Shown: positions 1 through 16,944, counted from the stretch's first letter. The stretch: 64,000 bases of DNA from an uncultured delta proteobacterium (GCA_963802945.1 CAWDKY010000028.1:128001-192000); one strand, 5' to 3'. Notes: generated from the sequence alone by a model not told the origin. Numbers and translations: made by a program.

Positions 1-1068
1 GGATTGGTTATCTTTTCCGGATTATCCGACCGTTTAATTTTGGGTTGCATCCGTCCGTTTTCCTCTATGGCCGTAAGCTTATAGACGCCGCCCAGGGCTG
101 GGGTAGAGTAAGCGGTTACCAGTTTGGTTCCCACCCCCCAGGAATCAATCCGTCCTCCTTGCTTCTTGATACTTTTGATAATCCATTCATCCAGGTCACT
201 GGAGGCGAAAATCTTGGCCTCATTAAATACCTTCCCTATCCAGCATTTTTCTGGCTTCTTTGCTTAAGTAAGCCAGGTCTCCACTGTCAAGACGAATGCC
301 TTTCAATACCCCTTTACCCTGGGCTTTTAATTCCTTGCCGATTTTAATGGCATTAGGTATTCCGCTTTTCAGGGTATCGTAGGTATCCACCAATAACAAG
401 CACTCCTTTGGATACACCCGGCAATAGGCCCGGAAAGCTTCTAATTCCGAAGGAAAGGATTCGATCCAGCTATGGGCTACGGTCCCGCGAACCGGTAGGT
501 CGAATAATTTTCCGGCCAGGATATTGGATGTACCCTGGGCCCCGCCGATAAAAGCCGCTCTGGCGGCCCCAATGGCCGCATCCGGCCCATGAGCGCGTCT
601 GAGACCGAATTCAATCACCGGATCTCCTTTAGCGGCCGTACAAACCCTGGAAGCCTTGGTGGCGATCAGGGTTTGGAAATTCATAATGTTAAGCAAGGCT
701 GATTCAAGGAATTGGGCTTCAGGTAAAGGGGCCGTGACCCGGATGATGGGTTCATAAGGAAAAACAACCGTGCCTTCCGGCATGGCAAAAAGGTCACCGG
801 TAAAGCGAAACTTTTTCAAATACCGGAGGACCTCCTTGGGAAAAATTGCCAAATTTTTTAGGTAGGACAAGTCCTCGGAGGTAAAATGAATATTTTTTAT
901 ATAATCAACAACCTGCTCAAGGCCGGCGGCAATACAATATCCCCCTTCATCTGGGACCTTGCGAAAGAAGTAGTCAAAATTGGCCCTTTGATTTTCTTTG
1001 CCGTTGACCAGGTATCCGCCGACCATAGTCAGTTCATACATGTCGGTCAATAAAGCGAGATTACGCAT
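1..1068 (-). CDS. pncB: Nicotinate phosphoribosyltransferase, runs off the window start, frameshift near 225-235
   Basis: Motifs LLTDMYELTM, EFGLRRAHG, LVDTYD, GIRLDSGDL. After the stop at 223 another frame continues with AKIFASSDLDEW...WGVGTKL...LGGVYKL. Confidence 0.93.
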
Positions 1069-1142
1069 TCGGCTCTTTCTGCGGAGTGGTTATTTTTTTT
1101 ATTACATAGTTAATCTCTTTTGTTCAAGGGCTAATTTTTTTA

Positions 1143-1180
1143 TTGACACCCATACAAATGTATGGTATTTGATTCCATAC
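1143..1180 (+). promoter_or_regulatory. lexA promoter with candidate LexA operator
   Basis: TTGACA at 1143-1148; perfect palindrome CCATACA-AA-TGTATGG at 1150-1165; extra half-site CCATAC at 1175-1180; no SD before the ATG at 1182. Confidence 0.75.
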
Positions 1181-1181
1181 C

Positions 1182-1793
1182 ATGCAGACCCTTACGACTC
1201 GGCAAAAACAAATATTGAAATATCTCCGGGAATATCAGGCAGAACACGGCTATCCCCCTTCTTTCCGGGAAACGGCCAGGTTTTTTAAGATCAATCTGGG
1301 CACAGTCCAGGATCATCTAAAAGCCCTGACTCGAAAAGGATACCTGAGCCGGGAAGTCAACCGCTCCCGCGGACTTCATTTGATCCCTCCCTCCGGACCA
1401 TTACGAACCGTGCCTCTCTATGGAGCCATTCCGGCCGGCGATCCCCGGCAGATAGAAGAAGCCGCCGAAGGGTATGTTTCTCTTCCGGAAATCTGGGCCA
1501 GGGGTGCAGAAGTCTTTCTCCTGCGGGTGCGGGGAGAAAGTATGAGCCCTTACATTTTAACCGGAGATCAGGTCATTGTCCGCCGTCAGAGCCAGCTTCC
1601 TCAGGGGGCCGTAGGGGTCTTCCGTATTGGTGAGGAAATCACCTTGAAACGGTTCTACCGAGAAAAAGACAACGTTATCTTAAAAGGGGAGCATCCGGAA
1701 TTTCCTCCCCTGATCCTGAAAGGCCGGGATTTAGCAACCATGAGTATCCTGGGCAAGGTCGTCGGTATTTATCGTCCGATAGAGATAGGGTAG
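1182..1793 (+). CDS. lexA: SOS repressor LexA
   Basis: N-terminal winged helix (LTTRQKQIL, GYPPSFRE, HLKALTRKGYL), Ala-Gly cleavage site (GAIPAGDP), catalytic Ser (GESM) and Lys (TLKR). Confidence 0.95.
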   Translation: MQTLTTRQKQILKYLREYQAEHGYPPSFRETARFFKINLGTVQDHLKALTRKGYLSREVNRSRGLHLIPPSGPLRTVPLYGAIPAGDPRQIEEAAEGYVSLPEIWARGAEVFLLRVRGESMSPYILTGDQVIVRRQSQLPQGAVGVFRIGEEITLKRFYREKDNVILKGEHPEFPPLILKGRDLATMSILGKVVGIYRPIEIG

Positions 1794-1802
1794 GGGGGTG
1801 GG

Positions 1803-2393
1803 ATGGATTTTCTTCCCTGGCACAAGATGCAGTCCCTGGCCCTTTCAGGAGGCAGCATCCTTTTTTTTGGAGAAGCTATGGCCCGCCTTTCCGCCTACCT
1901 GATGGGCCGGTTATCGTTGCAAGGGAAATCCATCACCCTGGTCAATGCCACCCAATCCTTTGACCCTTATCTGGTGGCCAGGGTGGGCCGTCTGGCAGGG
2001 ACTCCTCCCCACACCCTTTTGGAGCGGATCCGTCTCAGTCGGGCCTTCACCTGCCATCAACTGGTAACCCTGCTCTGTGAGACCCTTCCCGGACAAGAGA
2101 TTAAAGGCCCCCTTTTTGTACTGGGACCAGGTGTCCTGTTCTATGACGAACAGGTCCCCATAAGGGAAAGGCAGGCCCTTTTTCGTCAGGTGGTCCGCTC
2201 GTTAGTCGTCATAAAAGAAAGAGGGCAGGGGTGTTACCTTTTCCAAAGTCCCATCGCCCGGCAGTTAAAAAACCGGCATTTTGGAAGAGAGCTGTCTAGG
2301 TCCGTTCAATGGGTTATCCGGGTCAGCCAGGGTGAACAAGGACTGGAAGGAAAATTATATCCTTCCCTTCTCCTTCCCGAAAGAAAGGGGTAG
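1803..2393 (+). CDS. Inactivated RadA/RecA-fold protein (PolB2-associated, ImuA analogue)
   Basis: SFDPYLVAR...LLERIRLSRAFTCHQL resembles the RadA core; no Walker A GxxxxGKT; lies between lexA and the polB2 partner gene. Confidence 0.75.
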   Translation: MDFLPWHKMQSLALSGGSILFFGEAMARLSAYLMGRLSLQGKSITLVNATQSFDPYLVARVGRLAGTPPHTLLERIRLSRAFTCHQLVTLLCETLPGQEIKGPLFVLGPGVLFYDEQVPIRERQALFRQVVRSLVVIKERGQGCYLFQSPIARQLKNRHFGRELSRSVQWVIRVSQGEQGLEGKLYPSLLLPERKG

Positions 2394-2395
2394 AG

Positions 2396-2692
2396 ATGGG
2401 AAGAACGGTTTTGCCCTTCAGTCAGATTATAGAGCGGGAATATGCCGACTGGAAAAAATTCCGCCGTGGTTTGCGCCGGGAAGATCAAGTGGTTCTGGAC
2501 CGCCTTTTCGACTTGGCCCGTCTTCACGTCCAGGCTGGCGTCTATGCCTCCCGTCCCTGGCCCCTGGAGACCATCCTGGTATCGATTCTCATTGAACAGG
2601 AAAAAGCCCTGGCCGCTTTGCGAGATGAACTGAAGGGGTTGGAGAATGCCGCCGAAAGAAAGAGTGGGGCTGATATCGACCCGGGATTGTGA
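2396..2692 (+). CDS. Small helical PolB2-associated protein (arCOG07300-like)
   Basis: MGRT...W.KFRRGLRREDQ...LF..AR.H..A....RP.PLE..L.SILIEQ pattern, recalled from small genes that accompany polB2. Confidence 0.75.
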   Translation: MGRTVLPFSQIIEREYADWKKFRRGLRREDQVVLDRLFDLARLHVQAGVYASRPWPLETILVSILIEQEKALAALRDELKGLENAAERKSGADIDPGL

Positions 2693-2700
2693 TTCAGAGA

Positions 2701-2730
2701 TTGACATCATTACAGCATGATGGTATGATG
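2701..2730 (+). promoter_or_regulatory. vapBC promoter with operator
   Basis: TTGACA(2701)-17 bp-TATGAT(2724) with extended TG; inverted repeat CATCAT-N6-ATGATG at 2705-2722. Confidence 0.8.
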
Positions 2731-2759
2731 GCAATTCATAACCATAAGGGGGGTACACC

Positions 2760-3011
2760 ATGAAACGCGCCCAGATCCAATTAGAAGAAGAAACCTTTGA
2801 GGTTTTGCGCCAACGGGCCTTTAAAGAGAAAAAATCCATTGCCGGGATTATTCGAGAGCTTATTCATAAGGAAATAGCCCATCCGGTCCGGGGAAAAAAA
2901 TTATCCGTAAAAGATTTCCGGTTTGTCGGAGCCGGTAAATCCCGGCAAGGATACCTTTCGCCGGTCTCAGAACGACACGACCAGGCCCTGGAGGAGGCGT
3001 TTCGAGAATGA
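2760..3011 (+). CDS. vapB: Ribbon-helix-helix (CopG-like) antitoxin
   Basis: MKRAQIQL...LRQRA...KSIAGIIRELI; overlaps the PIN toxin start by ATGA. Confidence 0.8.
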   Translation: MKRAQIQLEEETFEVLRQRAFKEKKSIAGIIRELIHKEIAHPVRGKKLSVKDFRFVGAGKSRQGYLSPVSERHDQALEEAFRE

Positions 3012-3397
3012 TTTTTTTGGATACATCGGCGATCTACGCCGTGGCGGATAACGCTGATCCAAATCATGCTTCGGCCCTTGAAAAATTCAACCAAGCCTTG
3101 TCTACCGGAGAACCCATTGGTCTTCATAACTATATTCTGGTAGAAAGTGCAGCCTTATTGCAGGCCCGACTTGGCCTCCGGGTGGCTTTGCAGTTTCTAA
3201 AGGAAGCAAACGCCTTTCAGATTGAATGGGTGGATCGCAACCTCCATAAAAAGGCCTTACAGGAACTGGAAAAAATCGGGAAGCGAGGGGTCAGTTTTGT
3301 GGACTGCCTGAGTTTTTTAGTGATGAGACAGAAAGGGATAAAAAGGGTTTTGGCCTTTGATCCCGATTTTGCGGATCAGGGGTTTGTGCTATATTGA
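3008..3397 (+). CDS. vapC: PIN-domain toxin
   Basis: IFLDTSA, ILVES, SFVDCLSF, LAFDPDF acidic PIN residues. Confidence 0.92.
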   Translation: MIFLDTSAIYAVADNADPNHASALEKFNQALSTGEPIGLHNYILVESAALLQARLGLRVALQFLKEANAFQIEWVDRNLHKKALQELEKIGKRGVSFVDCLSFLVMRQKGIKRVLAFDPDFADQGFVLY

Positions 3398-3681
3398 CGG
3401 GAAAAATATACAAAATCTAATAGGGTTGAATATAGATACAGGCATTGCCAAGGAAAAACCCGGATAACGGTGCTGTAATGGTTAGATTACTGTAAAGAAT
3501 ATGATTGAGAAAGATCTCGACGCCGTACACAAGTGGCTCATTGAGCTTCTGGAGATTTTGTCTCGGATGGATGGTTAAGAAAAAAGGGGTTGGAACTTTA
3601 CAGAACGTTTAAATGATTGACAAGGGAAAGCATAAAGGAATCCATAAAAAATAGCCTGCAGGTGAAAAAGGGAGGCGTGGA

Positions 3682-4731
3682 ATGACCAAGAGCTTCAAAC
3701 CCATCTTTACGATCACTAATCGGATCACGGCCGGGCTGACCCGCATTGAGCGGGCTCGAGGATTCCTGGAGGCCGCGACATTATCCGCGGCCTGGGTGCG
3801 TGAAATGGGCCGCCGCGCTTTGATCCTGGAAGCGCATCATACCACGCATATTGAGGGAACGCGCCTGACGCTGGAGCAGGCCGAGCAACTCCTGGCAGGG
3901 AAGCCGGTTCCCGAGGCCGATCCCAATGACGTACGGGAACTAATGAACTATCGAAAGGCGTTCGAGTTTGTCTCCGCATATCTTGAAGGAGAAGACCCTA
4001 TCACCGAAGGGCTGATCCGGGAAATTCATAAACGCTTGGTGGAAGGGGTCCGGGGTGGATCTGCGGCCCCTGGCGAGTACCGGAAAATTCAAAACTACGT
4101 GGTCAACTCCGTCACCGGAGAAACAATTTATACACCACCTCCTGCCTATGAAGTGCCGATCATGATGGCCGAGTTGGTGAAATGGCTAAACCGCAAACAG
4201 GAAATTCACCCCGTGTTGATGAGCGGCATCTCACAATTCCAGTTTGTACATATCCACCCTTTTTTAGACGGTAACGGCCGGACGTCCCGGTTGCTCTCTA
4301 CCCTTTGTCTCTACCGAGACGGATATGACTTTAAGCGTCTCTTTACGATCAGCGAATACTACGACCGGGACCGGCCTGCTTTCTACCGGGCCATCCAGAG
4401 CGTCCGCGAGAACGGAATGGACCTGACCGGCTGGTTGGAATACTTTGTAGGAGGATTATCCACCCAGCTTACCGAAGTCAGGAGGCGTGGGGAACAGGCC
4501 ATTCGCCGGGATGTACTCATTAAAGAGCACAAACTTTCGGACCGTCAGGCCAAGGCCCTCGGCCACATCCTGGAGCACGGCAGCCTGACCATTCAGGATT
4601 TCGAGCGCCTAAATTCCGATGTCAACCGCCGGTCTTTGCAACGCGATCTGAAGGCCATGGTGGATATAAGGTTGTTGTATTCAGAAGGGTCGACTAACAA
4701 GTTTGTTTATCGGCTTAAGGAGACGGACTGA
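3682..4731 (+). CDS. Fic family AMPylase with N-terminal inhibitory motif and C-terminal HTH
   Basis: [12 protein letters not shown] catalytic motif; TTHIEG fits the (S/T)xxxE(G/N) inhibitory motif; C-terminal [14 protein letters not shown] helix-turn-helix. Confidence 0.92.
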
Positions 4732-4780
4732 ACTTGCGACAATCTTGCGACATAACTTACGACAAGCACGCGACTCGACT
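4732..4780 (+). repeat. Phased ~11 bp direct repeats with a CGAC core
   Basis: ACTTGCGACA, ATCTTGCGACA, TAACTTACGACA, AGCACGCGACT, CGACT directly after the fic stop. Confidence 0.7.
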
Positions 4781-4859
4781 CATGATATCAACATCATTCA
4801 GTACATTCGACCCGTTGAATCCTTATTTCTTTAACTAATCATACCGAACAGTAACTTCC

Positions 4860-7051
4860 ATGATCGCCAAAGGCTGGCTTTTAGATTTATATGTCCAGGG
4901 GGACTTCCTAATCCTCTGGTTTCGGCTTAATTCGGGCGAACTCCTTCGCCTGACTGACTCTTTCAGTTTTCTTTTTTATGCTCAGGGCCCAAAGTTTGCT
5001 TTGCGGATCCTGGAAAAAAAATTGGCCCCTTATATTCGTCATACGGCCTGGACCCGGCGGATCGAGTTCTGGAGCGGTAAGACGATTTCAGTATTGGAAA
5101 TATCGATTCGATCTTTGGAAAAAATTCCTGAGGTCCTGCGCCTTCTGGCCGCCGGGTCGGAAGGCCTGACTTTTTATAACTGCGATCTGGGGATTCCCCA
5201 GTATTATGCCTGGCAGAAAGGCCTTTTCCCTTTATGTTCCTGTGAAATAGAGTGGGAAAGGAATGCCTTGAAACGGGTTACGGTCTTGGATTCTCCCTGG
5301 GGTCTGGATGCCTCGTTTCCTGATCTGAGGGTTATGGAAGTGGAATTGACGGCCCATTCGCAGATTCCTTTAAACAAGGGGAATTCCCTTCGGGTTACTT
5401 TTGATAATACTTCTTTTGATCTGGAGGCCTCAGGGGTAACTGAACTCCTGAAAGAACTGAATCACCTGGTAACTGAATATGACCCGGATCTTTTCCTGTC
5501 ACGCCATGGGGATGCGCAAATTTTTCCCTTCCTCTGGCAGGCTTCCCAAAAGGAAAAAAAGCTTTGCTTCTGGATCGGGACCCCTATCCCCCCAGTCGGA
5601 TGCGAGTAGGGCAGGGGCGCTCTTATTTTTCGTACGAACAGGTCCTCTATCAAAGCACCGCCTTTCTCCTTTACGGTCGACTGCATATCGATCAGAAAAA
5701 CTCCTTTTTCTATCGGGAATCCGGTTTGGAAGGGATTCTTTTTCTATCCCGGTTGACCAAGCTGCCGGTTCAGACCGTGGCACGGGCCACACCGGGCACG
5801 GCCATCACTTCGATGCAATTGGATCAAGCCGTTCAAAAGGGCATTCTCATCCCCTGGAAAAAGGGACGCCCTGAAACCTTTAAGACCGCCTGGGATCTCC
5901 TGGTGTCGGACAAAGGAGGGCTGGTCTTGCAGCCCCCTATCGGGCTTTGGGAACAGGTGGCCGAAATCGATTTTGTTTCTATGTATCCCAATATCATGGT
6001 CCAGCACAACATCTCTCCTGAAACCATGCTTTGCCGCTGCTGTCCTGAGGCCGTCGTTCCGGAAACAGGCTATAACATCTGTCAAAAACGGAAAGGTCTG
6101 GTGCCTGAAACCCTGGAACCGATCCTGGCCCTGAGAGCTGAGCTCAAAGCCCGGGCCCATGCCGGTCACCCTAAAAAGCTCCTTTATCAATCAATGCAAC
6201 AGGCCCTTAAATGGCTACTGGTGACCTGTTTCGGGTATATGGGATATAAAAATGCCCGCTTTGGCTGTATCGAGGCCCATGAGGCCATTACCGCTTTTGG
6301 CCGGGACAAACTCCTTTCAGCCAAGGAAGCGGCCGAAGAGAATGGGTTTCAGGTCCTTCACGGCCTCACGGATTCACTTTGGATCCGCGGACCGGAAATG
6401 ACCCCAGGAAAAATAGAGGCCCTTTTAAAGGAAATCACCAATCGAACCGGGGTGCCGATCAGTCTGGAAGGGATTTATCAGTGGATCGTTTTTCTTCCCT
6501 CAAAGGTTCGAGCTGATCGACCGGTAGCCAATCGATACTTCGGGCTTTTTACCAACGGAAACGTGAAAATACGAGGGATCGACTGTTGCCGCCATGATAC
6601 CCCGTTATTTATAAAAAAAGCGCAGGAAGACCTTCTTCTAACCCTGGCGCAAGCGAATAACCGCTCTGGTTTGGAAAGACGGATTCCAGAGGTCTTGGAA
6701 CGATTTAAAGAGTACGTGTCCTACTTAAAACAAGGCCAGGTCGATCCTCGTGAGCTGGTCATTAACCGTCATGTTGGGAAATCTTGGGAAGAATACCGGG
6801 TAAATACACCAACGCCCCTCGTTCTTCAACAACTCGAATCGGCCGGAATAACTCTCTATCCCGGTCAACGTGTAGGTTACCTTTTAGCAGAAGGATCGGC
6901 TCCTTATTCGTCTGATCAAAAATTAATTCCAGCCCCTTTTTTAAACGGTAAAGAGCGTTATGACCCCCGAGAATACATTGACTTGCTTTTTAAAGCGGTA
7001 CAAGAACTCACTATTGTTTTTAATTATAATATTAATAATATTTATGTTTAA
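4860..7051 (+). CDS. B-family DNA polymerase of the PolB2 group, split by a frameshift at the A-run near 5554-5560
   Basis: Motif A DFVSMYP, motif B ALKWLLVTCFGYMG, motif C variant HGLTDS, NRYFG, KIRGI. ORF 4860-5609 is the degenerate N-terminal/exonuclease part. Confidence 0.88.
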
Positions 7052-7520
7052 TATCATTAATTACTTTATTTTATTATTATTAAATAAAACAATAATTATA
7101 CTATTTAAATTAGTTAATATAATTAGTTACGTATTTAATGTAATAATTAACTTAATATTTTATATTAATCTTACGTTAATTACATAAAATTTTACTATAT
7201 AGTTATAGTAACTATTTTTTTTGTATCCGGTCCAATAGAATCAACGTAAATAAAATCTTGGACTTAACGGTAATACTTAAGGATGTGATTTCGATTTTAG
7301 AAAAAAATTATTCAAAGAAGGCAACATTGGAAATAACTTTATTAGATTTTGGATAATATTTTTCCTTATATCTACTTATAAAAAATATAAATATTAGTTA
7401 GTTAAGATAAAAAAGTAATAGGGTGATACTCATAATAGTTAATTTTTATGATAATTTTTAATTTGTTTACATAATATATCTTATCAGACATTATAATATG
7501 ATAAAACATATTAACGTTGC
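7015..7520. other. Extremely AT-rich non-coding tract
   Basis: Hand count gives 16 G/C in 180 nt at 7021-7200, about 9% GC. Confidence 0.9.
7464..7491 (-). other. dif: Candidate XerC/XerD dif site
   Basis: Minus strand ATGTCTGATAA-GATATA-TTATGTAAACA has the 11-6-11 layout with ATAA-N6-TTATGT core, compared with E. coli GGTGCGCATAA-TGTATA-TTATGTTAAAT. Confidence 0.75.
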
Positions 7521-7579
7521 TGGTTTAATTCTCTGAAAAGGTTAAAGCTTTGGGCTTGGTTAGGACTTTTTTGAAGTAA

Positions 7580-8236
7580 TCAGCGAGAAACCTGAGATTT
7601 GGAAATATTTTGCGCGGCGGACAGTTTTTCTTCGGGAAGGGTTGATGAAATGGCAAAGCAGAATATCACGGCAGAATTGGCAGCTTGAATCCCGGCAGGG
7701 GCGTTTTCAATAACTAAGCAGTTTATTGTGTCATGTTGTATTTTTTTAAGCGCTTTAAGGTAGGGGTCTGGGAAGGGTTTAAACCTTTTAGTATCATCGG
7801 CCGAGATAATAGCTGCAAAATAGGCTAACTCTTCTTCTTTCCATATTTTTTCAATCAGGTTTCTTCGTGAGCCGGTAACCAAACCCAGCAAAACTCCATT
7901 TCTTTTTAATAGCTTTAATAAAGGAATTGCTTCTGGATACAGCCTAACCTTTGATAAATATTGATTTAAAAACATGGAATTTTTGTTTAAATAAATATCT
8001 ATAATTTTATTATCATCAATAAGATACCCGTTTTCTTTAAATAATTTTTTTATAACTTCTGGCGCCATGGACCCTTCGTGTTCAAAGAGAAATTGATCGG
8101 ATACTTTAATATCTAAAGAGTCAAGTACTTTCTTCCAAGATTCAAGGTGATAATTCATACTATTCACCAAAACACCATCCATATCGAACAAGACCGCTTT
8201 GATTAGGGTATTTTTTGAAATATTTTCAAGTTCCAT
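7580..8236 (-). CDS. HAD family phosphatase (beta-PGM-like)
   Basis: FDMDGVL, LVTGS, KPFPDPY, VIENAPAGI. Confidence 0.9.
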   Translation of the reverse strand: MELENISKNTLIKAVLFDMDGVLVNSMNYHLESWKKVLDSLDIKVSDQFLFEHEGSMAPEVIKKLFKENGYLIDDNKIIDIYLNKNSMFLNQYLSKVRLYPEAIPLLKLLKRNGVLLGLVTGSRRNLIEKIWKEEELAYFAAIISADDTKRFKPFPDPYLKALKKIQHDTINCLVIENAPAGIQAANSAVIFCFAISSTLPEEKLSAAQNISKSQVSR

Positions 8237-8406
8237 GGGGAAAAGTTATATCTGAACCGGAATCGTAAATCAAGCCTAACCCAAGTAAATTAATTGACAC
8301 CCTACCCTCTTTTGTTTAAAAATATAAAAAGCTGTCTTAAATACGTTTATTAAATGTAAGGGCCGGTTTTAAAAACAGCCCTCAATAATCTAGAAGGATT
8401 TTTCTT

Positions 8407-9900
8407 ATGGAACTTCGCGAATTTCCCAAAAATATCCGACCTCATGTCATCCCCAAAATTGGAGGACAGTTGGAATACCGTTGCCTGGGTTGTCAGAAGA
8501 CCTATTCCATTGACAGCCTCTTATATATCTGTCCAGATTGCGGAGGGGTCTTACTTATTCATGATTTGGATGAAAAAAAGAAAAGGAAGCGTTCAGGAAA
8601 ATTATGGCAACAGATTTTTGATTATCGCCGGATGTCCACCATTCCAGCCTTACAGGGAATTTTTTCATTCCATGAGTTTATTGCCCCAATAATACCTCTT
8701 GAACATATTTTTTACTTAGGGGAAGGACATACCCCTTTAGTCGAAGCCAATCAAGAGCTCAAGAACAGGATCGGCCTAAGATTTTCTTTTAAAAATGAAG
8801 GTCAAAACCCGAGTGCTTCCTTTAAGGACCGTGGAATGGCCTGCGCCTTAAGTTATTTAAATTATTTAATTTATAAAAAGCGATTTAAAAATGTTCTGGC
8901 CATTTGTGCTTCTACCGGAGACACATCGGCTTCAGCTGCCCTCTATGCCGCCTATCTTGGTCAGAAAGTCCGGTCGGCTGTGTTGCTTCCAAAAGGGAAA
9001 GTAACTCCCCAACAACTTTCTCAACCCCTAGGCAGCGGGGCCACGGTCCTGGAGATCCCCGGTGTCTTTGATGATTGCATGAAGGTTGTGGAATATCTCT
9101 CTGACCATTATCCGGTGGCTCTTCTCAATTCCAAAAACGCCTGGCGGATTTTAGGGCAGGAATCGTATTCCTTTGAAGTAGCCCAGGCTTTGGATTATCG
9201 GATGGAAGAGACAGTCCTGGTTGTTCCAATCGGCAATGCCGGAAATATTACCGCTATTATTTCAGGATTTTTGAAATTATACCGATATGGGTTGATTTCC
9301 TCTTTGCCCAAGATTATCGGGGTGCAATCCCACCATGCTAATCCGGTCTATCGCTACTATCTTGAGCCTCGTATAGCCAGTCGGGTTTTTAAACCTGTTA
9401 TGGTTAAATCCAGCGTGGCCCAAGCGGCCATGATCGGAAACCCGGTATCCATGCCCAGGGTTATTGAAATGGTTGATCAATATACTCAGATCAGCGGGAA
9501 ACAAAAAATTTTCGTAGTTGAGGTCACAGAACAGGCAATTATGGATCATATGCTTTTGGCTAACCGAAACGGCCATATAGCCTGCACACAGGGAGGTGAA
9601 AGTCTGGCTGGTTTGGTGAAAGCCCTGGCCGAAAAAAAGGTTTCACCTAAAGAAAGGGCTATTCTAAATGCTACAGCCCATTCTTTAAAATTTTCGGGTT
9701 TCCAGGAAATGTATTTCAATAACACCTTCCCGCCCGAATTTGGAATTCATCCCAAGAAAGGATTGCAAAACCATCCGGTTTCTTTGAAATCCAAAAAGCA
9801 AGGACAGATTTCAGTTCCTAGGAAGATTCAATCACCGAAGGAATATCAGAAGTTCGTTGAAAAAATGGCCTTGAAGGTAGTCGGATTATTAGGAATGTGA
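8407..9900 (+). CDS. thrC: Threonine synthase
   Basis: N-terminal CxxC..CxxC; NPSASFKDRGM PLP lysine; CASTGDTSAS; PIGNAGN. Confidence 0.92.
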   Translation: MELREFPKNIRPHVIPKIGGQLEYRCLGCQKTYSIDSLLYICPDCGGVLLIHDLDEKKKRKRSGKLWQQIFDYRRMSTIPALQGIFSFHEFIAPIIPLEHIFYLGEGHTPLVEANQELKNRIGLRFSFKNEGQNPSASFKDRGMACALSYLNYLIYKKRFKNVLAICASTGDTSASAALYAAYLGQKVRSAVLLPKGKVTPQQLSQPLGSGATVLEIPGVFDDCMKVVEYLSDHYPVALLNSKNAWRILGQESYSFEVAQALDYRMEETVLVVPIGNAGNITAIISGFLKLYRYGLISSLPKIIGVQSHHANPVYRYYLEPRIASRVFKPVMVKSSVAQAAMIGNPVSMPRVIEMVDQYTQISGKQKIFVVEVTEQAIMDHMLLANRNGHIACTQGGESLAGLVKALAEKKVSPKERAILNATAHSLKFSGFQEMYFNNTFPPEFGIHPKKGLQNHPVSLKSKKQGQISVPRKIQSPKEYQKFVEKMALKVVGLLGM

Positions 9901-9976
9901 GGCATATTTAAACGTTCATCGTTCAGCGTTCGATATCTTCATCCTATAAATAATCACCCCTTCTCTCATTAAATAA

Positions 9977-10447
9977 ATGAAATTTGTAATCGTTACAATT
10001 GGAAAGATTAAAGAAGACTTCATTTTAAAAGGAATTAAGGAGTACAGCCATCGAATAGGACGTTACACCAAATTGGTTTTTTGCCCAATAAAAGAAGAAC
10101 GCCTTACTAAAGGGGCAACGGAGTCTTTGATATTGCAAAAGGAGGGGAAAAGAATATTAACCAAAGTCCCGCATGATGGTTTATGGGTGGCTATGGATCG
10201 TCAGGGACAGGAAATGAATTCCCTTCAACACTTTGAGTTTATCAACAAACAAGCTGAAATCGGGGTAAAAAAAATGTATTATTTAATTGGTGGTCCTTCG
10301 GGGCTTTCCCAAAAAGTTCTAAAACAATCCGACAGACTCCTTTCGCTCTCCCGGATGACTCTGACCCATGAAATGAGCGCCCTTCTCTTAATGGAACAAA
10401 TTTACCGTTATCTGAATTTCATGTCCGGAGAAAAATATCATAAGTGA
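9977..10447 (+). CDS. rlmH: 23S rRNA m3Psi1915 methyltransferase
   Basis: IGGPSGL, LSLSRMTLTHE, EQIYR, YHK C-terminus. Confidence 0.95.
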   Translation: MKFVIVTIGKIKEDFILKGIKEYSHRIGRYTKLVFCPIKEERLTKGATESLILQKEGKRILTKVPHDGLWVAMDRQGQEMNSLQHFEFINKQAEIGVKKMYYLIGGPSGLSQKVLKQSDRLLSLSRMTLTHEMSALLLMEQIYRYLNFMSGEKYHK

Positions 10448-10525
10448 ACGGTGTAAGGTCCAAGGCAAAAAGACATTGGCTCCCTTACCCTTCACCTTGA
10501 ACCTTGTACCGTGTACCTTACCTTT

Positions 10526-10750
10526 TCAGGCCGCTTCTACACTGGCCACTTCCGGAATCTGTTGTTTGAGGTATTTCTCAATGCCCATTTTAAGGGTCAT
10601 CTGGGACATAGGACAGCCCCCGCAGGCCCCTGTCAGACGAACCTTAACCTGCCCGGCGTCATTAACATCCACCAATTCCACGTCTCCCCCATCTGCTTGG
10701 AGTTGAGGTCGGATTTTATTTAACGCTTCTTGAATTTGTTCCTTGGTCAT
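10526..10750 (-). CDS. NifU/Nfu-type Fe-S carrier
   Basis: [23 protein letters not shown]. Confidence 0.92.
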
Positions 10751-10999
10751 AGGTGTTCTCCTTAATCTTCTTTAATCCTGATATTCAGCCAGTATACCTT
10801 AGCTAACATACTCTAAGATAAAATTTACGTTCATTATAGCAAACATTGCGTCAATCCACAACCCGAAATCAATAAACGTAAATCTTTCCCCCCCTACCCT
10901 TCTTTTTTCTCTATTAGATCATTATTTCCTTCAGGCTGTAAGCTCATCCTTGCCATTTTTCATAATCCTTCCACCCTGCAAGGTACGTAGCGATGAAGC

Positions 11000-11142
11000 G
11001 GGGTTCCCAGCAGAAATACCCTTGACTGCGAACATTACCCTTATCCCCTTTGACCTTAAATGAGGCGATTGCCTTCCACTTCACCTTCCAGGCCGCAATT
11101 CTGAGCGCGAAGGACACAACTGGTCTTATATTGTGTTCCCAT
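11000..11142 (-). pseudogene. Remnant of a molybdopterin oxidoreductase 4Fe-4S N-terminus
   Basis: Reads MGTQYKTSCVLRAQNCGLEGEVEGNRLI, then in a shifted frame KVKGDKGNVRSQGYFC; truncated afterwards. Confidence 0.6.
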
Positions 11143-11184
11143 AATTCTTTCCTATCTCCATTAATTTTTATATCTTATACTCCA

Positions 11185-11770
11185 TCAGATTTCGATGGAT
11201 TGTGGACTACCTAAAAATGAATATTTTACAATATGGAGAAAAATAAAAAATCCTAAAACCGCTATAAATAAAAGGAACAAGAAGAAAATGAACCCAATAT
11301 ACCAGACCCAGCGATTGACTCCGCCCAGTTCGGACAGGGAAAGGGCTATAGGGGTTGTCCCTCGGCGAGATTTGTATTCCAGAATTTTTTTTCTGCTATG
11401 CAAATAATAAAGATAATTGCCGACGATTCCCCAACCGATCATAGTCAGCGGTAAGGCCACCGGAGTAAAGGCGATAAAAAAGGCCAATGAGGCCCAAAGA
11501 TACATTTTTCTGTAGAGCATCCATATAAATCCCAGGAAGAAAGCCGACCAGCTCCAGGTAACCGCGAAACTGGTTGTCCCCTTGTCCCAAAAAGAACGGA
11601 ATTTGTTCAAATAGTAATCGGCCTTGTTCCCGATAAAAGCCCTGAACTCTTCTTCAATAATCGTTTCATTCGAGGGACCGATCACAAAAGGAGCGATCTC
11701 TTTTCCACAGTGGGGACAAAAGACACTTCCCATTTCCGTGGCTTTACCACAATGCCGGGCAGAAAGGCAT
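11185..11770 (-). CDS. Zinc-ribbon plus DUF2628-like membrane protein, frameshift near the start
   Basis: SD GGAGGAGG and ATG at 11770 give MPFCP..CGK; second CPHCG; TWSWSAFF...WMLYRKMY...GNYLYY. Confidence 0.75.
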
Positions 11771-11803
11771 TTTCCTCCTCCTAAATCCCGGTAATCTGTG
11801 CCT

Positions 11804-12461
11804 TCACTTCTTGGGATACCCTACCGATTGGGCCAGAGCAATCTTCTGGTCCGGTCGAAGTAGCAGGGCCTTAGCCAGAGCTGGTTTGTCAATGGAGGCC
11901 CGCACACCGGTAGCCAATCCTTCCGAAGCACAAAAAAGATACACATTCTGGACGATCACACCCGTGTCGGCAGCTGAATAAAACTCTTTATCTTCATTAG
12001 AGGCTTTGCCCATTCTTCGAAAAATCCGCCACATAAACAAGATTAACGGAGGCCTCCTTGACGAACGACTGGCGGCCGGTCATCCCTCGGATATCTCCCT
12101 TACTGACTGGTTGTAAAAGGTGATTTTTAGCATCATATAGATAGACACCTTCAGGGAGGACCACATAAAGTTCAATTTCCTGCCAGTTCACGGCCGAGGG
12201 GGCGGTACGTTTTCCTGAATCCGGCCTGTTGATTCCAAAGGCCGCCCAAAGCAGATTGGAAAGCATTTGAAGGGGTGGTTTCTCCGGACTGAAGGCCCGG
12301 TCAGTCTTCCGATCTTTCAATGCCTGCATCAAGGGGCGACCGCCATCGGTTTGGGGTTTCAATAGTTGGATCGGATTGAGCTCCTGGGCGTAAGTTATAA
12401 GGGGAAAGATAAACATCAGGGTCAAGACCAACGCAATGGTTTTTAAGCCTCTTTTTTTCAT
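11804..12461 (-). CDS. SagB/ThcOx-like nitroreductase, frameshift near 12020
   Basis: LSNLLWAAFG, RTAPSAVNWQ, then QNVYLFCASEGL and QSVGYP in the second frame. Confidence 0.85.
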
Positions 12462-12699: not shown

Positions 12700-13312
12700 A
12701 TGATCGTTAAGCAAATACCCATAGGGGCTTGGGATGTTTTCAGTTACCTTATCGGAGATGAGAAAACAGGGGAGGCCATGGTTATCGATCCGGGCGGGGA
12801 CGTGGACCTCATAGTGGCCAAAGCCAAGGACGAAAATCTGAATATCAAATACATTTTTAACACCCATTCCCACGGGGACCATACCTCCGGCAATGCAGCC
12901 TTGAAAAAATTGACCGGAGCCAAAATCGTTATGCATGCCCTGGAGGACAATTTAGTTAGAGGAGAGTGCAAAGGCGGACATTCGATTGAAAGATGAAAAA
13001 ACATTCAAGCTGGGTGAAATAACCTTTCAGGTTTTCCATACTCCGGGTCACTCCCCGGGCGGGCTTTGCCTCTACGCTGAAGGGCAGCTGTTTACCGGCG
13101 ATACGCTCTTTGTGGGAGACAGCGGCCGTACGGATCTGGCCGGTGGAAATCGCCTCGCCCTGGGCGCTTCCATACGCAGACTTATGGAACTTTCGGAAGA
13201 CACGGTTGTTTGGCCCGGTCATGATTACGGGCCGACTCCCAGCTCCACATTGGGTTGGGAAAAGAGAAACAACGTCAACGCCAGGGAATACGGGTATTAT
13301 GTGAAAGACTGA
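12700..13312 (+). CDS. MBL-fold metallo-hydrolase (glyoxalase II-like), frameshift near 12960-12990
   Basis: THSHGDH, HTPGHSPG, FTGDTLF, PGHDYG. Confidence 0.88.
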
Positions 13313-15674: not shown

Positions 15675-16643
15675 TTAAGGAGCCTTGTATTCATTTAGAT
15701 AGAGGGTAATAATCTGTTCACTTAAGCTGTAGGGATCCGATTTTTTATTAACCAGTTCCTGGATAAACTCCTCCCATTGACCAGTGCACGTCAGATTTTC
15801 CATAACAGTCTGAACAACATCCTGTTTAACCAGGTCAAAGAGTTCCATACGGGCTCGGTCATGTTGAAACTTTTTTAAATAGGCCGCATCTTTTTGAAAA
15901 AGAAAGGTTCGATGTTCCTCGATACCGGCCATCAATTCATTAATTCCTTCATTTTTTACCGCTTCAGTCGCATAGATGATCGGTTTCCAATCCCCTTTTA
16001 ATTTACGGGCTTTATCCATCTCGATCATCATCTGAAGTTCTTGACGAGTTTTATCGGCCCCTTCCCGCTCACATTTGTTGATGACAAAGATATCTCCGGC
16101 CTCCAGGATACCAGCCTTGATGGCTTGAATATCGTCACCCATACCCGGTATGAGGACAATCAGGGTGGTATGAGCGGCCCGGACGATTTCGATCTCGTCC
16201 TGTCCGACCCCAACGGTCTCCACCAGGATATAATCCTTGCCCGTGGCATCCAGAACAGCGATTGCCCCGCGGGTCGAAGGTGTGAGGCCGCCGAAATGGC
16301 CGCGTGTGGCCAGACTGCGGATAAAGACCCCCTCATCGGTGCTGTGCCTCTGCATGCGTATGCGGTCTCCAAGGATGGCCCCACCACTGAACGGGCTGGT
16401 GGGGTCCACGGCCAAGACCCCGACCGTTTTCCCTCGGGCGCGCAGAACCTGGATCATGCAATCCACCAGGGTACTTTTTCCCACGCCGGGTGAACCGGTA
16501 ACCCCAATAACATAGGCCCGGCCAGTATGAGCGTAAAGTTTTTTTAAGATTTTTCTGGCTTCAGGCTGGCCATCGTCGATGTCGCGGATCAACCGGGCTA
16601 CGGCCCGAAGGTCTCCGTTCAAAATTTTTTGCGTCCGGCCCAT
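15675..16643 (-). CDS. meaB: MeaB/ArgK GTPase chaperone of B12-dependent mutases
   Basis: GSPGVGKST, VDPTSPFSGGAILGDRIRM, ETVGVGQ. Confidence 0.95.
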   Translation of the reverse strand: MGRTQKILNGDLRAVARLIRDIDDGQPEARKILKKLYAHTGRAYVIGVTGSPGVGKSTLVDCMIQVLRARGKTVGVLAVDPTSPFSGGAILGDRIRMQRHSTDEGVFIRSLATRGHFGGLTPSTRGAIAVLDATGKDYILVETVGVGQDEIEIVRAAHTTLIVLIPGMGDDIQAIKAGILEAGDIFVINKCEREGADKTRQELQMMIEMDKARKLKGDWKPIIYATEAVKNEGINELMAGIEEHRTFLFQKDAAYLKKFQHDRARMELFDLVKQDVVQTVMENLTCTGQWEEFIQELVNKKSDPYSLSEQIITLYLNEYKAP

Positions 16644-16944
16644 ACTTACTGAAACAGTTCCCTTTCCGTTGAAGCTGGGGGTTTTCTACAATTCCTTTTA
16701 GAAGCGAAAAAAGCAGATATCGTCTAAATTCTATTTATTTTGTTAAACATGAAGTTATAATTTTGAACCATTTCACTCGAATCTTTAGCCTCTTGAATTC
16801 AGGTTTTAATGCTACCCCATTCTTCTTTTTTTTCAATAGATATTTTACTTTAATAATACATGATTTCTGAAGGGTGTAGTTTTCATCTGACAAATTCAAG
16901 GATGGCGCCCTGTTAGTTTCCAAATTATTTATATCTTTTTTTAA

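Follow-up and report, generated by a model that had tools for sequence, protein, structure and literature searches.

The gene cluster considered here lies on the plus strand of a 64,000-nt stretch of DNA from an uncultured delta proteobacterium (GCA_963802945.1 CAWDKY010000028.1:128001-192000; the whole stretch is called the window), and very probably represents another copy of the bacterial PolB2 mutasome operon known from the literature; the sole lexA of the genome stands at its head. It differs from a textbook member in that its polymerase gene, polB2, is divided between two reading frames by one base and that three cargo genes are lodged upstream of it. As a further member it adds nothing to the definition of the PolB2 mutasome, a system of archaeal origin that has been recognised only recently and provides damage-induced mutagenesis by a route other than Pol V or ImuABC; local details of modest interest are its lineage-specific operator, a LexA regulon that seems to comprise one operon, the site of the cargo, and the polymerase alleles with seven or eight adenines at one run (A7 and A8). 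They do make the locus a convenient one for experiment, with a sole LexA and a single sharp operator, a clean predicted interface between iRadA and PolB2, natural A7 and A8 polymerase alleles, and a view of defence genes settling within an SOS operon.

The system has been described twice by comparative means and listed a third time (the papers are cited here for those portions of their text that were available). Makarova et al. 2014 linked bacterial PolB2 to arCOG07300, an inactivated RadA and lexA, with Leptospirillum ferriphilum LFML04_0990-0993 as an example (PMC4104785). Timinskas et al. 2025 modelled a heteropentameric three-protein mutasome in archaea and bacteria, reported iRadA-PPB2-PolB2 as the only bacterial gene order, and described the operons as 'interspersed with other genes', which the available text does not name, and lexA as enriched nearby (PMC11791011); in a 2026 survey the group figures as G2/PolB2 (PMC12926913). 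A first-pass annotation of the window, made from the sequence alone, had named the association of PolB2 with an inactive RadA, arCOG07300 and, in bacteria, lexA; this is the association published in 2014. It had also stated that the bacterial version lacks experimental characterisation, and our literature search, which found no bench work on any bacterial PolB2 mutasome member, is consistent with that.

The same annotation had described four co-oriented genes, in a feature that begins at the −35 hexamer of the lexA promoter (position 1143): lexA, a Walker-A-less RadA-fold gene, a 98-aa helical gene and a B-family polymerase with PolB2-type motifs, together a mutasome cassette with the logic of lexA2-imuA-imuB-dnaE2. 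The first three genes are present as described, all on the plus strand. The polymerase has the family match and the motif claimed for it, in two frames rather than in one open reading frame (ORF), and three genes (RHH, PIN and Fic) between it and the 98-aa gene had been overlooked. As for the cassette as a whole, the LexA-headed arrangement and a modelled contact between iRadA and the polymerase speak for it; the system had already been published, the polymerase is frame-broken and cargo has been inserted.

The lexA product matched TIGR00498 (E 4e-48) with 163.7 bits, against a curated equivalog cutoff of 110.95, and its translation shows the Ala-Gly site (PAGDP), the Ser (GESM) and the Lys (LKR). 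For iRadA, a profile built from 29 relatives matched PDB chains of RadA, DMC1 and RAD51, at best with E 1.3e-9 over profile positions 40-154; its AlphaFold2 model, with a predicted local distance difference test (pLDDT) value of 88.5, had RAD51, DMC1 and RadA cores as its top Foldseek matches, at template modeling scores of 0.63-0.75. The protein has no G-x4-G-K-[ST] motif, GEAMARLS standing at the P-loop position after the first strand; a GKS at residues 41-43 is not conserved, the position of the RadA Walker B Asp was aligned to Gly in the profile alignment, and no RadA N-terminal domain was found in the protein. PPB2 is predicted to fold as three helices, and its N-terminal MGRT was shared by all 15 aligned sequences; the ESM Atlas clusters closest to it were without exception DUF8156 (PF26485, score 0.95), a link taken from the ESM Atlas listing alone. 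These traits of iRadA (the core fold without ATPase motifs or N-terminal domain) and of PPB2 are those given for the two proteins in the available part of PMC11791011.

The 495-aa C-terminal piece of polB2 matched PF00136 at E 1.8e-36, which makes it a family-B polymerase. Among NCBIfam models one of the PRK05761 type scored best (420 bits; Pol II models gave 38-66 bits), and the protein aligned with E. coli Pol II at 25% identity over 320 aa (71 bits). Motif C reads HGLTDS, with LTD where E. coli Pol II has DTD (YGDTDS); the position of the first Asp was occupied by L, I, Y or V in all 11 aligned sequences, and the second Asp (D270) was invariant. The 249-aa N-terminal piece matched no Pfam family at E values up to 0.1 and no exonuclease domain; it aligned with the N-terminal parts of full-length relatives, whose alignment has no conserved acidic residue at what we take to be the ExoI and ExoII motif positions. 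One further model, NF004416, was tried as a discriminator for PolB2 and set aside, having also matched in E. coli and in four archaea, in none of them over the cutoff.

PolB2 is predicted in silico to bind iRadA through the stretch that precedes its D(K/R) motif, which is how PMC11791011, in its available portion, describes the contact. In a three-chain model made of the two polB2 pieces and iRadA, iRadA docks onto the 495-aa piece at residues 99-113, immediately ahead of the DK motif, and this segment contains FKTA, a Rad51-type FxxA-like stretch. With iRadA as the scored partner the model reached 0.74, a mark attained by 58 of 80 solved complexes and by 2 of 110 mismatched pairs, whereas the best of three controls scored 0.00; unlike the calibration complexes, it was built with its own alignments and three chains, and solved Rad51-FxxA peptide complexes may have contributed to the pass, both of which count against the prediction. 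Runs agreed in at least 95% of contacts, with partner pLDDT of at least 79. LDRDP, just after the frame break, was considered as the D(K/R) motif and rejected; the invariant D116-K117 and the modelled interface point to SDKGG, ~110 residues on. In relatives, Chloroflexota iRadA proteins (L017-L022) end in Q-x-x-L-W-E and several PolB2 proteins (L009, L014, L015, L022) in S/L-L-F-P-like tails, candidate clamp-binding motifs of the type described in the available text of PMC11791011, none of which is clear in the window's proteins.

Co-occurrence of these genes outside the window, which the annotation had expected, was found in several phyla. In 13 of the 22 related loci, iRadA and PPB2 immediately precede the polymerase; represented are Thermodesulfobacteriota, Acidobacteriota, Chloroflexota and Bacteroidota, together with a metagenome-assembled genome labelled Heliobacteriaceae. 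Of the other nine loci, two begin at a contig end, one has PPB2 only and six have neither gene. The linkage of iRadA, PPB2 and polymerase is beyond chance. A second scan gave at least 563 polymerase relatives in many phyla, the best 80 loci of the polymerase alignment being all bacterial but for one labelled Hadarchaeota, and the polymerase was present in 15 of 18 other genomes of the window's family. The genome itself has one lexA, one Y-family gene (dinB, PF00817), one polB2 and one recA; a second DnaE-type gene was not found in it, the one PF07733 match being a 1189-aa dnaE (the genome was scored 100% complete). With no second PF07733 gene and a single Y-family gene, the cassette stands where ImuABC might.

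The two pieces of polB2 join only through a one-base −1 change at GGAAAAAAAGC, the A7 run, and the joined protein agrees exactly in length with the relatives at this point. All 34 of the best database relatives (64-88% identity), from a search that covered proteins of 272-867 aa, are encoded in a single open frame of 721-768 aa. The A run is absent from relatives at 63-88% identity, which have other codons there, and so is not a conserved recoding site.

We favor, with some reserve, the reading that the loss of a base at the A7 run is real in the sampled population and that A7 and A8 distinguish near-identical strains; in that event the cell probably lacks the PolB2 catalytic subunit or obtains it only through occasional slippage. 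Contigs from four public sequencing runs (X1 to X4) were compared over polB2, and a single additional A at the run, the sole indel listed, was present in one contig each of X2, X3 and X4; these A8 contigs are otherwise close to the window, with 2 other differing letters in 169 for X3 and 1 in 218 for X4. A 151-nt contig from X1 spans the site with A7 and has no difference from the window, and in two further near-identical assemblies the gene calls start at the same post-shift codon, each with additional breaks of its own. Exact-pattern scans for the A7/A8 site in the metagenome and genome contig collections returned no matches.

The strongest alternative, which we consider unlikely, is that the frame break is an assembly error, so that the cell carries an intact single 730-aa gene and a fully functional cassette. 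The present assembly is indeed rich in one-base breaks. We surveyed 170 ORFs of at least 150 aa from 12 stretches of a genome of the same genus (G009), of which 147 had matches and 124 had a best match of at least 60% identity; among these 124 orthologue-like ORFs, 104 were intact, 3 partial and 17 split across frames in the present genome. Sixteen of the 17 were aligned, 15 of them with one non-triplet indel each (in one case a 10-nt deletion) and the last with three, nearly all of one base and at short runs. The genome's only Y-family gene, dinB, is likewise broken, its two frames coding for 243 and 166 aa. No single frameshift in this genome should be accepted without independent support, and the polB2 break may be an error; it falls within a homopolymer, all 34 closest relatives are intact, and both pieces are otherwise open and keep every family-invariant column. 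The survey and dinB weigh against a real base loss, as does the nature of the X1 contig, which has a depth of 2 and possibly comes from the window's source sample. On the other side, an assembly error would have to account for that same contig, A7 and otherwise identical to the window, whose length suggests a short-read origin, and for the two near-identical assemblies with the same post-shift start, which may share data or a systematic error. As observations on the breaks themselves, three of the 17 split ORFs lie in the window (11804-12461, 12700-13309 and 15678-16821), and the dinB break (G000:C27, L025 798-1971, minus strand) is away from any long homopolymer.

That the poly(A) run is functional, either as a heritable switch (A8 on, A7 off) or as a site of −1 ribosomal or transcriptional slippage giving a little full-length PolB2, strikes us as improbable. 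Such a role would fit the finding of both A7 and A8 in near-identical DNA of different runs, an observation made on a few low-depth contigs in which two lengths at one site are indistinguishable from a single mutation; it would also fit the incoming-frame heptamer A_AAA_AAG, which we take to be of the dnaX type, and the restoration by a −1 shift of a protein of exactly the relatives' length. However, the run is not conserved in relatives and none of the best 34 is split; a one-base loss from A8 yields the heptamer automatically; the RNA at 5555-5650 (96 nt) folds no better than shuffled sequences (z +1.08, with 173 of 200 shuffles at least as good); the sole Shine-Dalgarno-like AAGGA abuts the site instead of lying ~10 nt upstream; and runs of eight A/T are common in the genome, 1010 in total. 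Of the marks of a programmed −1 frameshift of the dnaX type, the heptamer is thus present, and conservation in relatives and a downstream fold are lacking. The C-terminal polB2 piece opens with a TTG at 5564, and the AAGGA is found 9 nt ahead of it (window 5550-5566). If the A7 allele is the true one, as the base-loss reading has it, the polB2 halves could in principle be separate chains; in the complex model they fold together, with pLDDT 87.

The spacer of the lexA promoter carries a perfect 16-bp palindrome, CCATACAAATGTATGG, to which LexA is inferred to bind. Thirteen lexA loci with diverged flanks (the window and 12 relatives) carry the identical 16-mer at the same position, between −35 and −10, and exactly one perfect copy occurs in the 4.37-Mb genome, against 0.26 expected. 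Sites with one or two mismatches numbered 79 in the genome, mostly within long ORFs, and the genome scan found no copy, perfect or with one or two mismatches, before recA, dinB or polB2. With a single perfect copy and none before these genes, this LexA would seem to regulate its own operon alone. In the window (1166-1184) and in relatives 10 nt separate the end of the −10-like hexamer from the lexA ATG, a distance at which the lexA mRNA is probably leaderless or nearly so.

Operator and recognition helix look as if they co-vary within this LexA family, in what would be a specificity switch insulating two LexA regulons. In the 13 loci that carry CCATACAAATGTATGG (among loci L054-L082, window included) the recognition helix reads INLG[TS][VA]QDH or IYPGSVQDH; six lexA promoters carry CTGTA-type boxes instead (CTGT-N8-ACAG), and their LexA has PN[AST] or INA at the matching position, in VYPN[AST]IQDH for four of them and in SPNAVQEH and SINAVRGH for the other two. 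Both operator types occur within one genome in G012 and in G013. A second cassette type in the same genus (L007, L066, L077, L078, L081) has a CTGT-type lexA followed directly by polB2, without iRadA or PPB2 between them; its polB2 shows 44-52% identity over the N-terminal part and 63-77% over the C-terminal part. In G012, the set of CCAT-type lexA, iRadA and PPB2 lies ~600 kb from the nearest polB2.

The working of the operon can be proposed as follows. A LexA dimer on CCATAC-N4-GTATGG in its own promoter spacer would repress lexA, iRadA, PPB2 and the genes downstream. On DNA damage, RecA filaments would form and LexA would cleave itself, a step for which the Ala-Gly site, the Ser and Lys residues and the presence of a recA gene provide the basis; with LexA cleaved, the operon would be transcribed. 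iRadA, a PPB2 trimer and PolB2 would then assemble as in the model of Timinskas et al. 2025, and the proofreading-dead PolB2 would extend damaged or mismatched primer ends, for which the experimental precedent is solely Sulfolobus Dpo2.

Several points tell against this scheme as an account of the present strain. The 2.2 kb of cargo between the operator and polB2 contain a strong promoter-like site, and polB2 has no operator of its own, so that LexA control of polB2 itself is uncertain on the sequence evidence; all experimental support for the PolB2 mutasome comes from Sulfolobus; and the frame break, together with the three inserted genes, weakens for this strain the descriptions 'LexA-controlled polymerase' and 'functional mutasome'. 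Among the public sequencing runs matching the stretch, no RNA run was listed, and none contained more than 0.15 of the sampled words.

There is little likelihood that the three proteins are something other than a translesion mutasome, acting in replication restart or regulation, or that the LTD polymerase is catalytically dead: Makarova et al. 2014 did deem these polymerases inactive and suggested that they act at stalled forks or in regulating origins (PMC4104785), and no assay of a bacterial member was found in the literature, but Sulfolobus Dpo2, in which the motif is changed in the same way, is an active, damage-induced enzyme that targeted mutagenesis depends on (PMC11791011), and the linkage to lexA points to a damage response.

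Membership in the published operon is also how the locus appears when set beside its closest counterparts. With the bacterial PolB2 mutasome operon it shares the three proteins, their order, the lexA at the head and the MGRT arm on PPB2, as well as the replacement of the first Asp of DxD, the absence of an exonuclease match and the iRadA-binding stretch before the DK motif; it differs from that operon by three cargo genes inside, by a polB2 one base out of frame and by a lineage-specific operator sequence. The operon of Sulfolobus Dpo2, arCOG07300 and inactive RadA is homologous and includes the only member with experimental data, Dpo2 of S. islandicus / S. solfataricus being a damage-induced, active translesion extender (PMC11791011); it is archaeal, is under Orc1/Cdc6-type regulation rather than LexA, and has the motif IID where the window has LTD.

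More distant systems share parts of the design. The lexA-imuA-imuB-dnaE2 cassette is also headed by LexA and also couples an error-prone polymerase to a RecA-fold protein that lacks ATPase motifs, but its polymerase is of family C and not B, no PPB2 counterpart is present in it, and the window's genome has no ImuB-like protein; the likeness is an analogy only. E. coli Pol V (UmuD'2C-RecA) resembles the present system in having a polymerase bound to a RecA/Rad51-family protein via an oligomerisation-like motif, a small subunit that inserts an N-terminal arm, and SOS control (PMC11791011); it differs in its Y-family polymerase, in recruiting active RecA where the present system has a dedicated dead paralogue, and in a small-subunit dimer instead of a trimer. 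E. coli Pol II (polB) is of family B and SOS-linked, and differs in its DTD motif, its active proofreading domain and its single-subunit working.

The cargo in the window consists of a pair of genes for a ribbon-helix-helix (RHH) antitoxin candidate and a PIN-domain toxin candidate, and of a SoFic-like Fic gene. The RHH gene matched RHH_1/RHH_4 at E 0.02, below the cutoff, and overlaps the PIN gene (PF01850, E 6.3e-11) by 4 nt. The Fic protein (PF02661, E 6.4e-20) matched PADLOC SoFic at E 1.3e-65 over residues 15-340, nearly its whole length, and an NCBIfam equivalog at 74 bits, where the cutoff is 550; its translation contains a HxFx[DE]GNGRxxR-type Fic motif stretch. Given the strong promoter-like site before the RHH gene, the RHH-PIN pair should be readable independently of LexA; the same site lies upstream of the RHH gene in L065. 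In the window's operon there is no terminator-like site between genes and no promoter-like site before polB2. A toxin-antitoxin pair inside an SOS-controlled translesion-polymerase operon is also found in E. coli, in dinB-yafN-yafO-yafP, where the toxin is YafO rather than a PIN protein and the polymerase is of the Y family.

Comparison of related loci presents the gap between PPB2 and polB2 as a variable site for defence and restriction-modification cargo across the family. RHH-PIN lies directly 3' of PPB2 in L027/L056, L029/L030/L060, L061, L065, L068, L069 and L079, with RHH identities of 73-84% (where a locus ends there, the RHH gene alone is visible), and L004 and L005 have Fic homologues (81-85% identical) 5' of polB2. 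PPB2 abuts polB2 in the closest species (G009), L001 has one 125-aa ORF in the gap, and three longer contigs (G008, G022 and G021) have 8.5-10 kb there (Table 1). The flanking synteny is common to the window and L001, with NAPRTase on one side and a HAD hydrolase on the other, which indicates that the cassette is chromosomal and that only the inner gap varies. The variable cargo spans three genera (window 2693-4859; L166, L167, L168), forming a defence-type islet within an SOS operon, and in both G008 and G022 the genes next to polB2 are a 736/743-aa methyltransferase and a 347/356-aa gene.

A broader notion, that the SOS mutasome operon in this lineage is at once a carrier of variable cargo and a switch, seems to us quite doubtful. 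The PPB2-polB2 gap would be a family-wide insertion site whose cargo is transcribed on damage, and the A8/A7 length of the poly(A) run would turn induced mutagenesis on and off heritably or let it trickle via slippage.

Table 1. Features of the PolB2 mutasome locus (window coordinates) and gap cargo of related contigs
Feature	Position	Strand	Remarks
lexA promoter	1143-1171	+	−35 TTGACA 1143-1148; 17-nt spacer; −10-like TATTTG 1166-1171; ATG 10 nt on
Putative LexA operator CCATACAAATGTATGG	1150-1165	+	perfect 16-bp palindrome CCATAC-N4-GTATGG, in lexA promoter spacer
lexA	1182-1793	+	TIGR00498 match over cutoff; only LexA gene found in genome
iRadA, 196 aa	1803-2393	+	RadA/Rad51 fold, without Walker A, without RadA N-terminal domain
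PPB2 (arCOG07300 / DUF8156), 98 aa	2396-2692	+	three-helix, MGRT N-terminal arm
Promoter-like site of RHH-PIN pair	2701-2729	+	TTGACA-17-TATGAT, 11/12 matches; CATCAT/ATGATG repeats
RHH antitoxin candidate, 83 aa (cargo)	2760-3011	+	weak RHH_1/RHH_4 matches
PIN-domain (VapC-like) toxin candidate, 129 aa (cargo)	3008-3397	+	PF01850
Fic-family protein, 349 aa (cargo)	3682-4731	+	PF02661; C-terminal winged helix-turn-helix (wHTH); SoFic-like
Three direct repeats CTTGCGACA, CTTGCGACA, CTTACGACA	4733-4764	+	11 and 12 nt spacing, just 3' of Fic stop
polB2 N-terminal ORF, 249 aa	4860-5609	+	in-frame part 4860-5561, 234 codons; degenerate exonuclease-side domains
A7 run	5554-5560	+	frame-change point, −1; incoming frame A_AAA_AAG, 5555-5561
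polB2 C-terminal ORF, 495 aa	5564-7051	+	−1 frame; part 5561-7051; PF00136
iRadA-binding stretch, residues 99-113 of 495-aa piece	FKTA 5879-5890	+	from complex model
DK motif D116-K117 (SDKGG)	5909-5914	+	D116 invariant; fits D(K/R) motif of PMC11791011 (available part)
Motif A Asp	5969-5971	+	polB2 C-terminal part
Motif C (HGLTDS)	6359-6376	+	
G008 gap cargo			RHH-PIN, XhoI-type endonuclease, three methyltransferase-like genes
G022 gap cargo			RHH-PIN, two DNA methylases, DUF5131, ASCH, GyrI-like genes
G021 gap cargo			DNA methylase, protein kinase, HEAT-repeat genes

The repeats just 3' of the Fic gene read CTT[GA]CGACA in the window, and arrays of four GCT[AG]TGACA units lie 3' of the Fic homologues in L004 and L005; these repeats may be binding sites for some regulator, perhaps the Fic wHTH. 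Rfam gave no match on window positions 1-12000, which include the 530-bp intergenic region at 7052-7579. This region, between the convergent polB2 and HAD-hydrolase genes, has a GC content of 0.27-0.32 in 1-kb windows, compared with ~0.47 for the genome.

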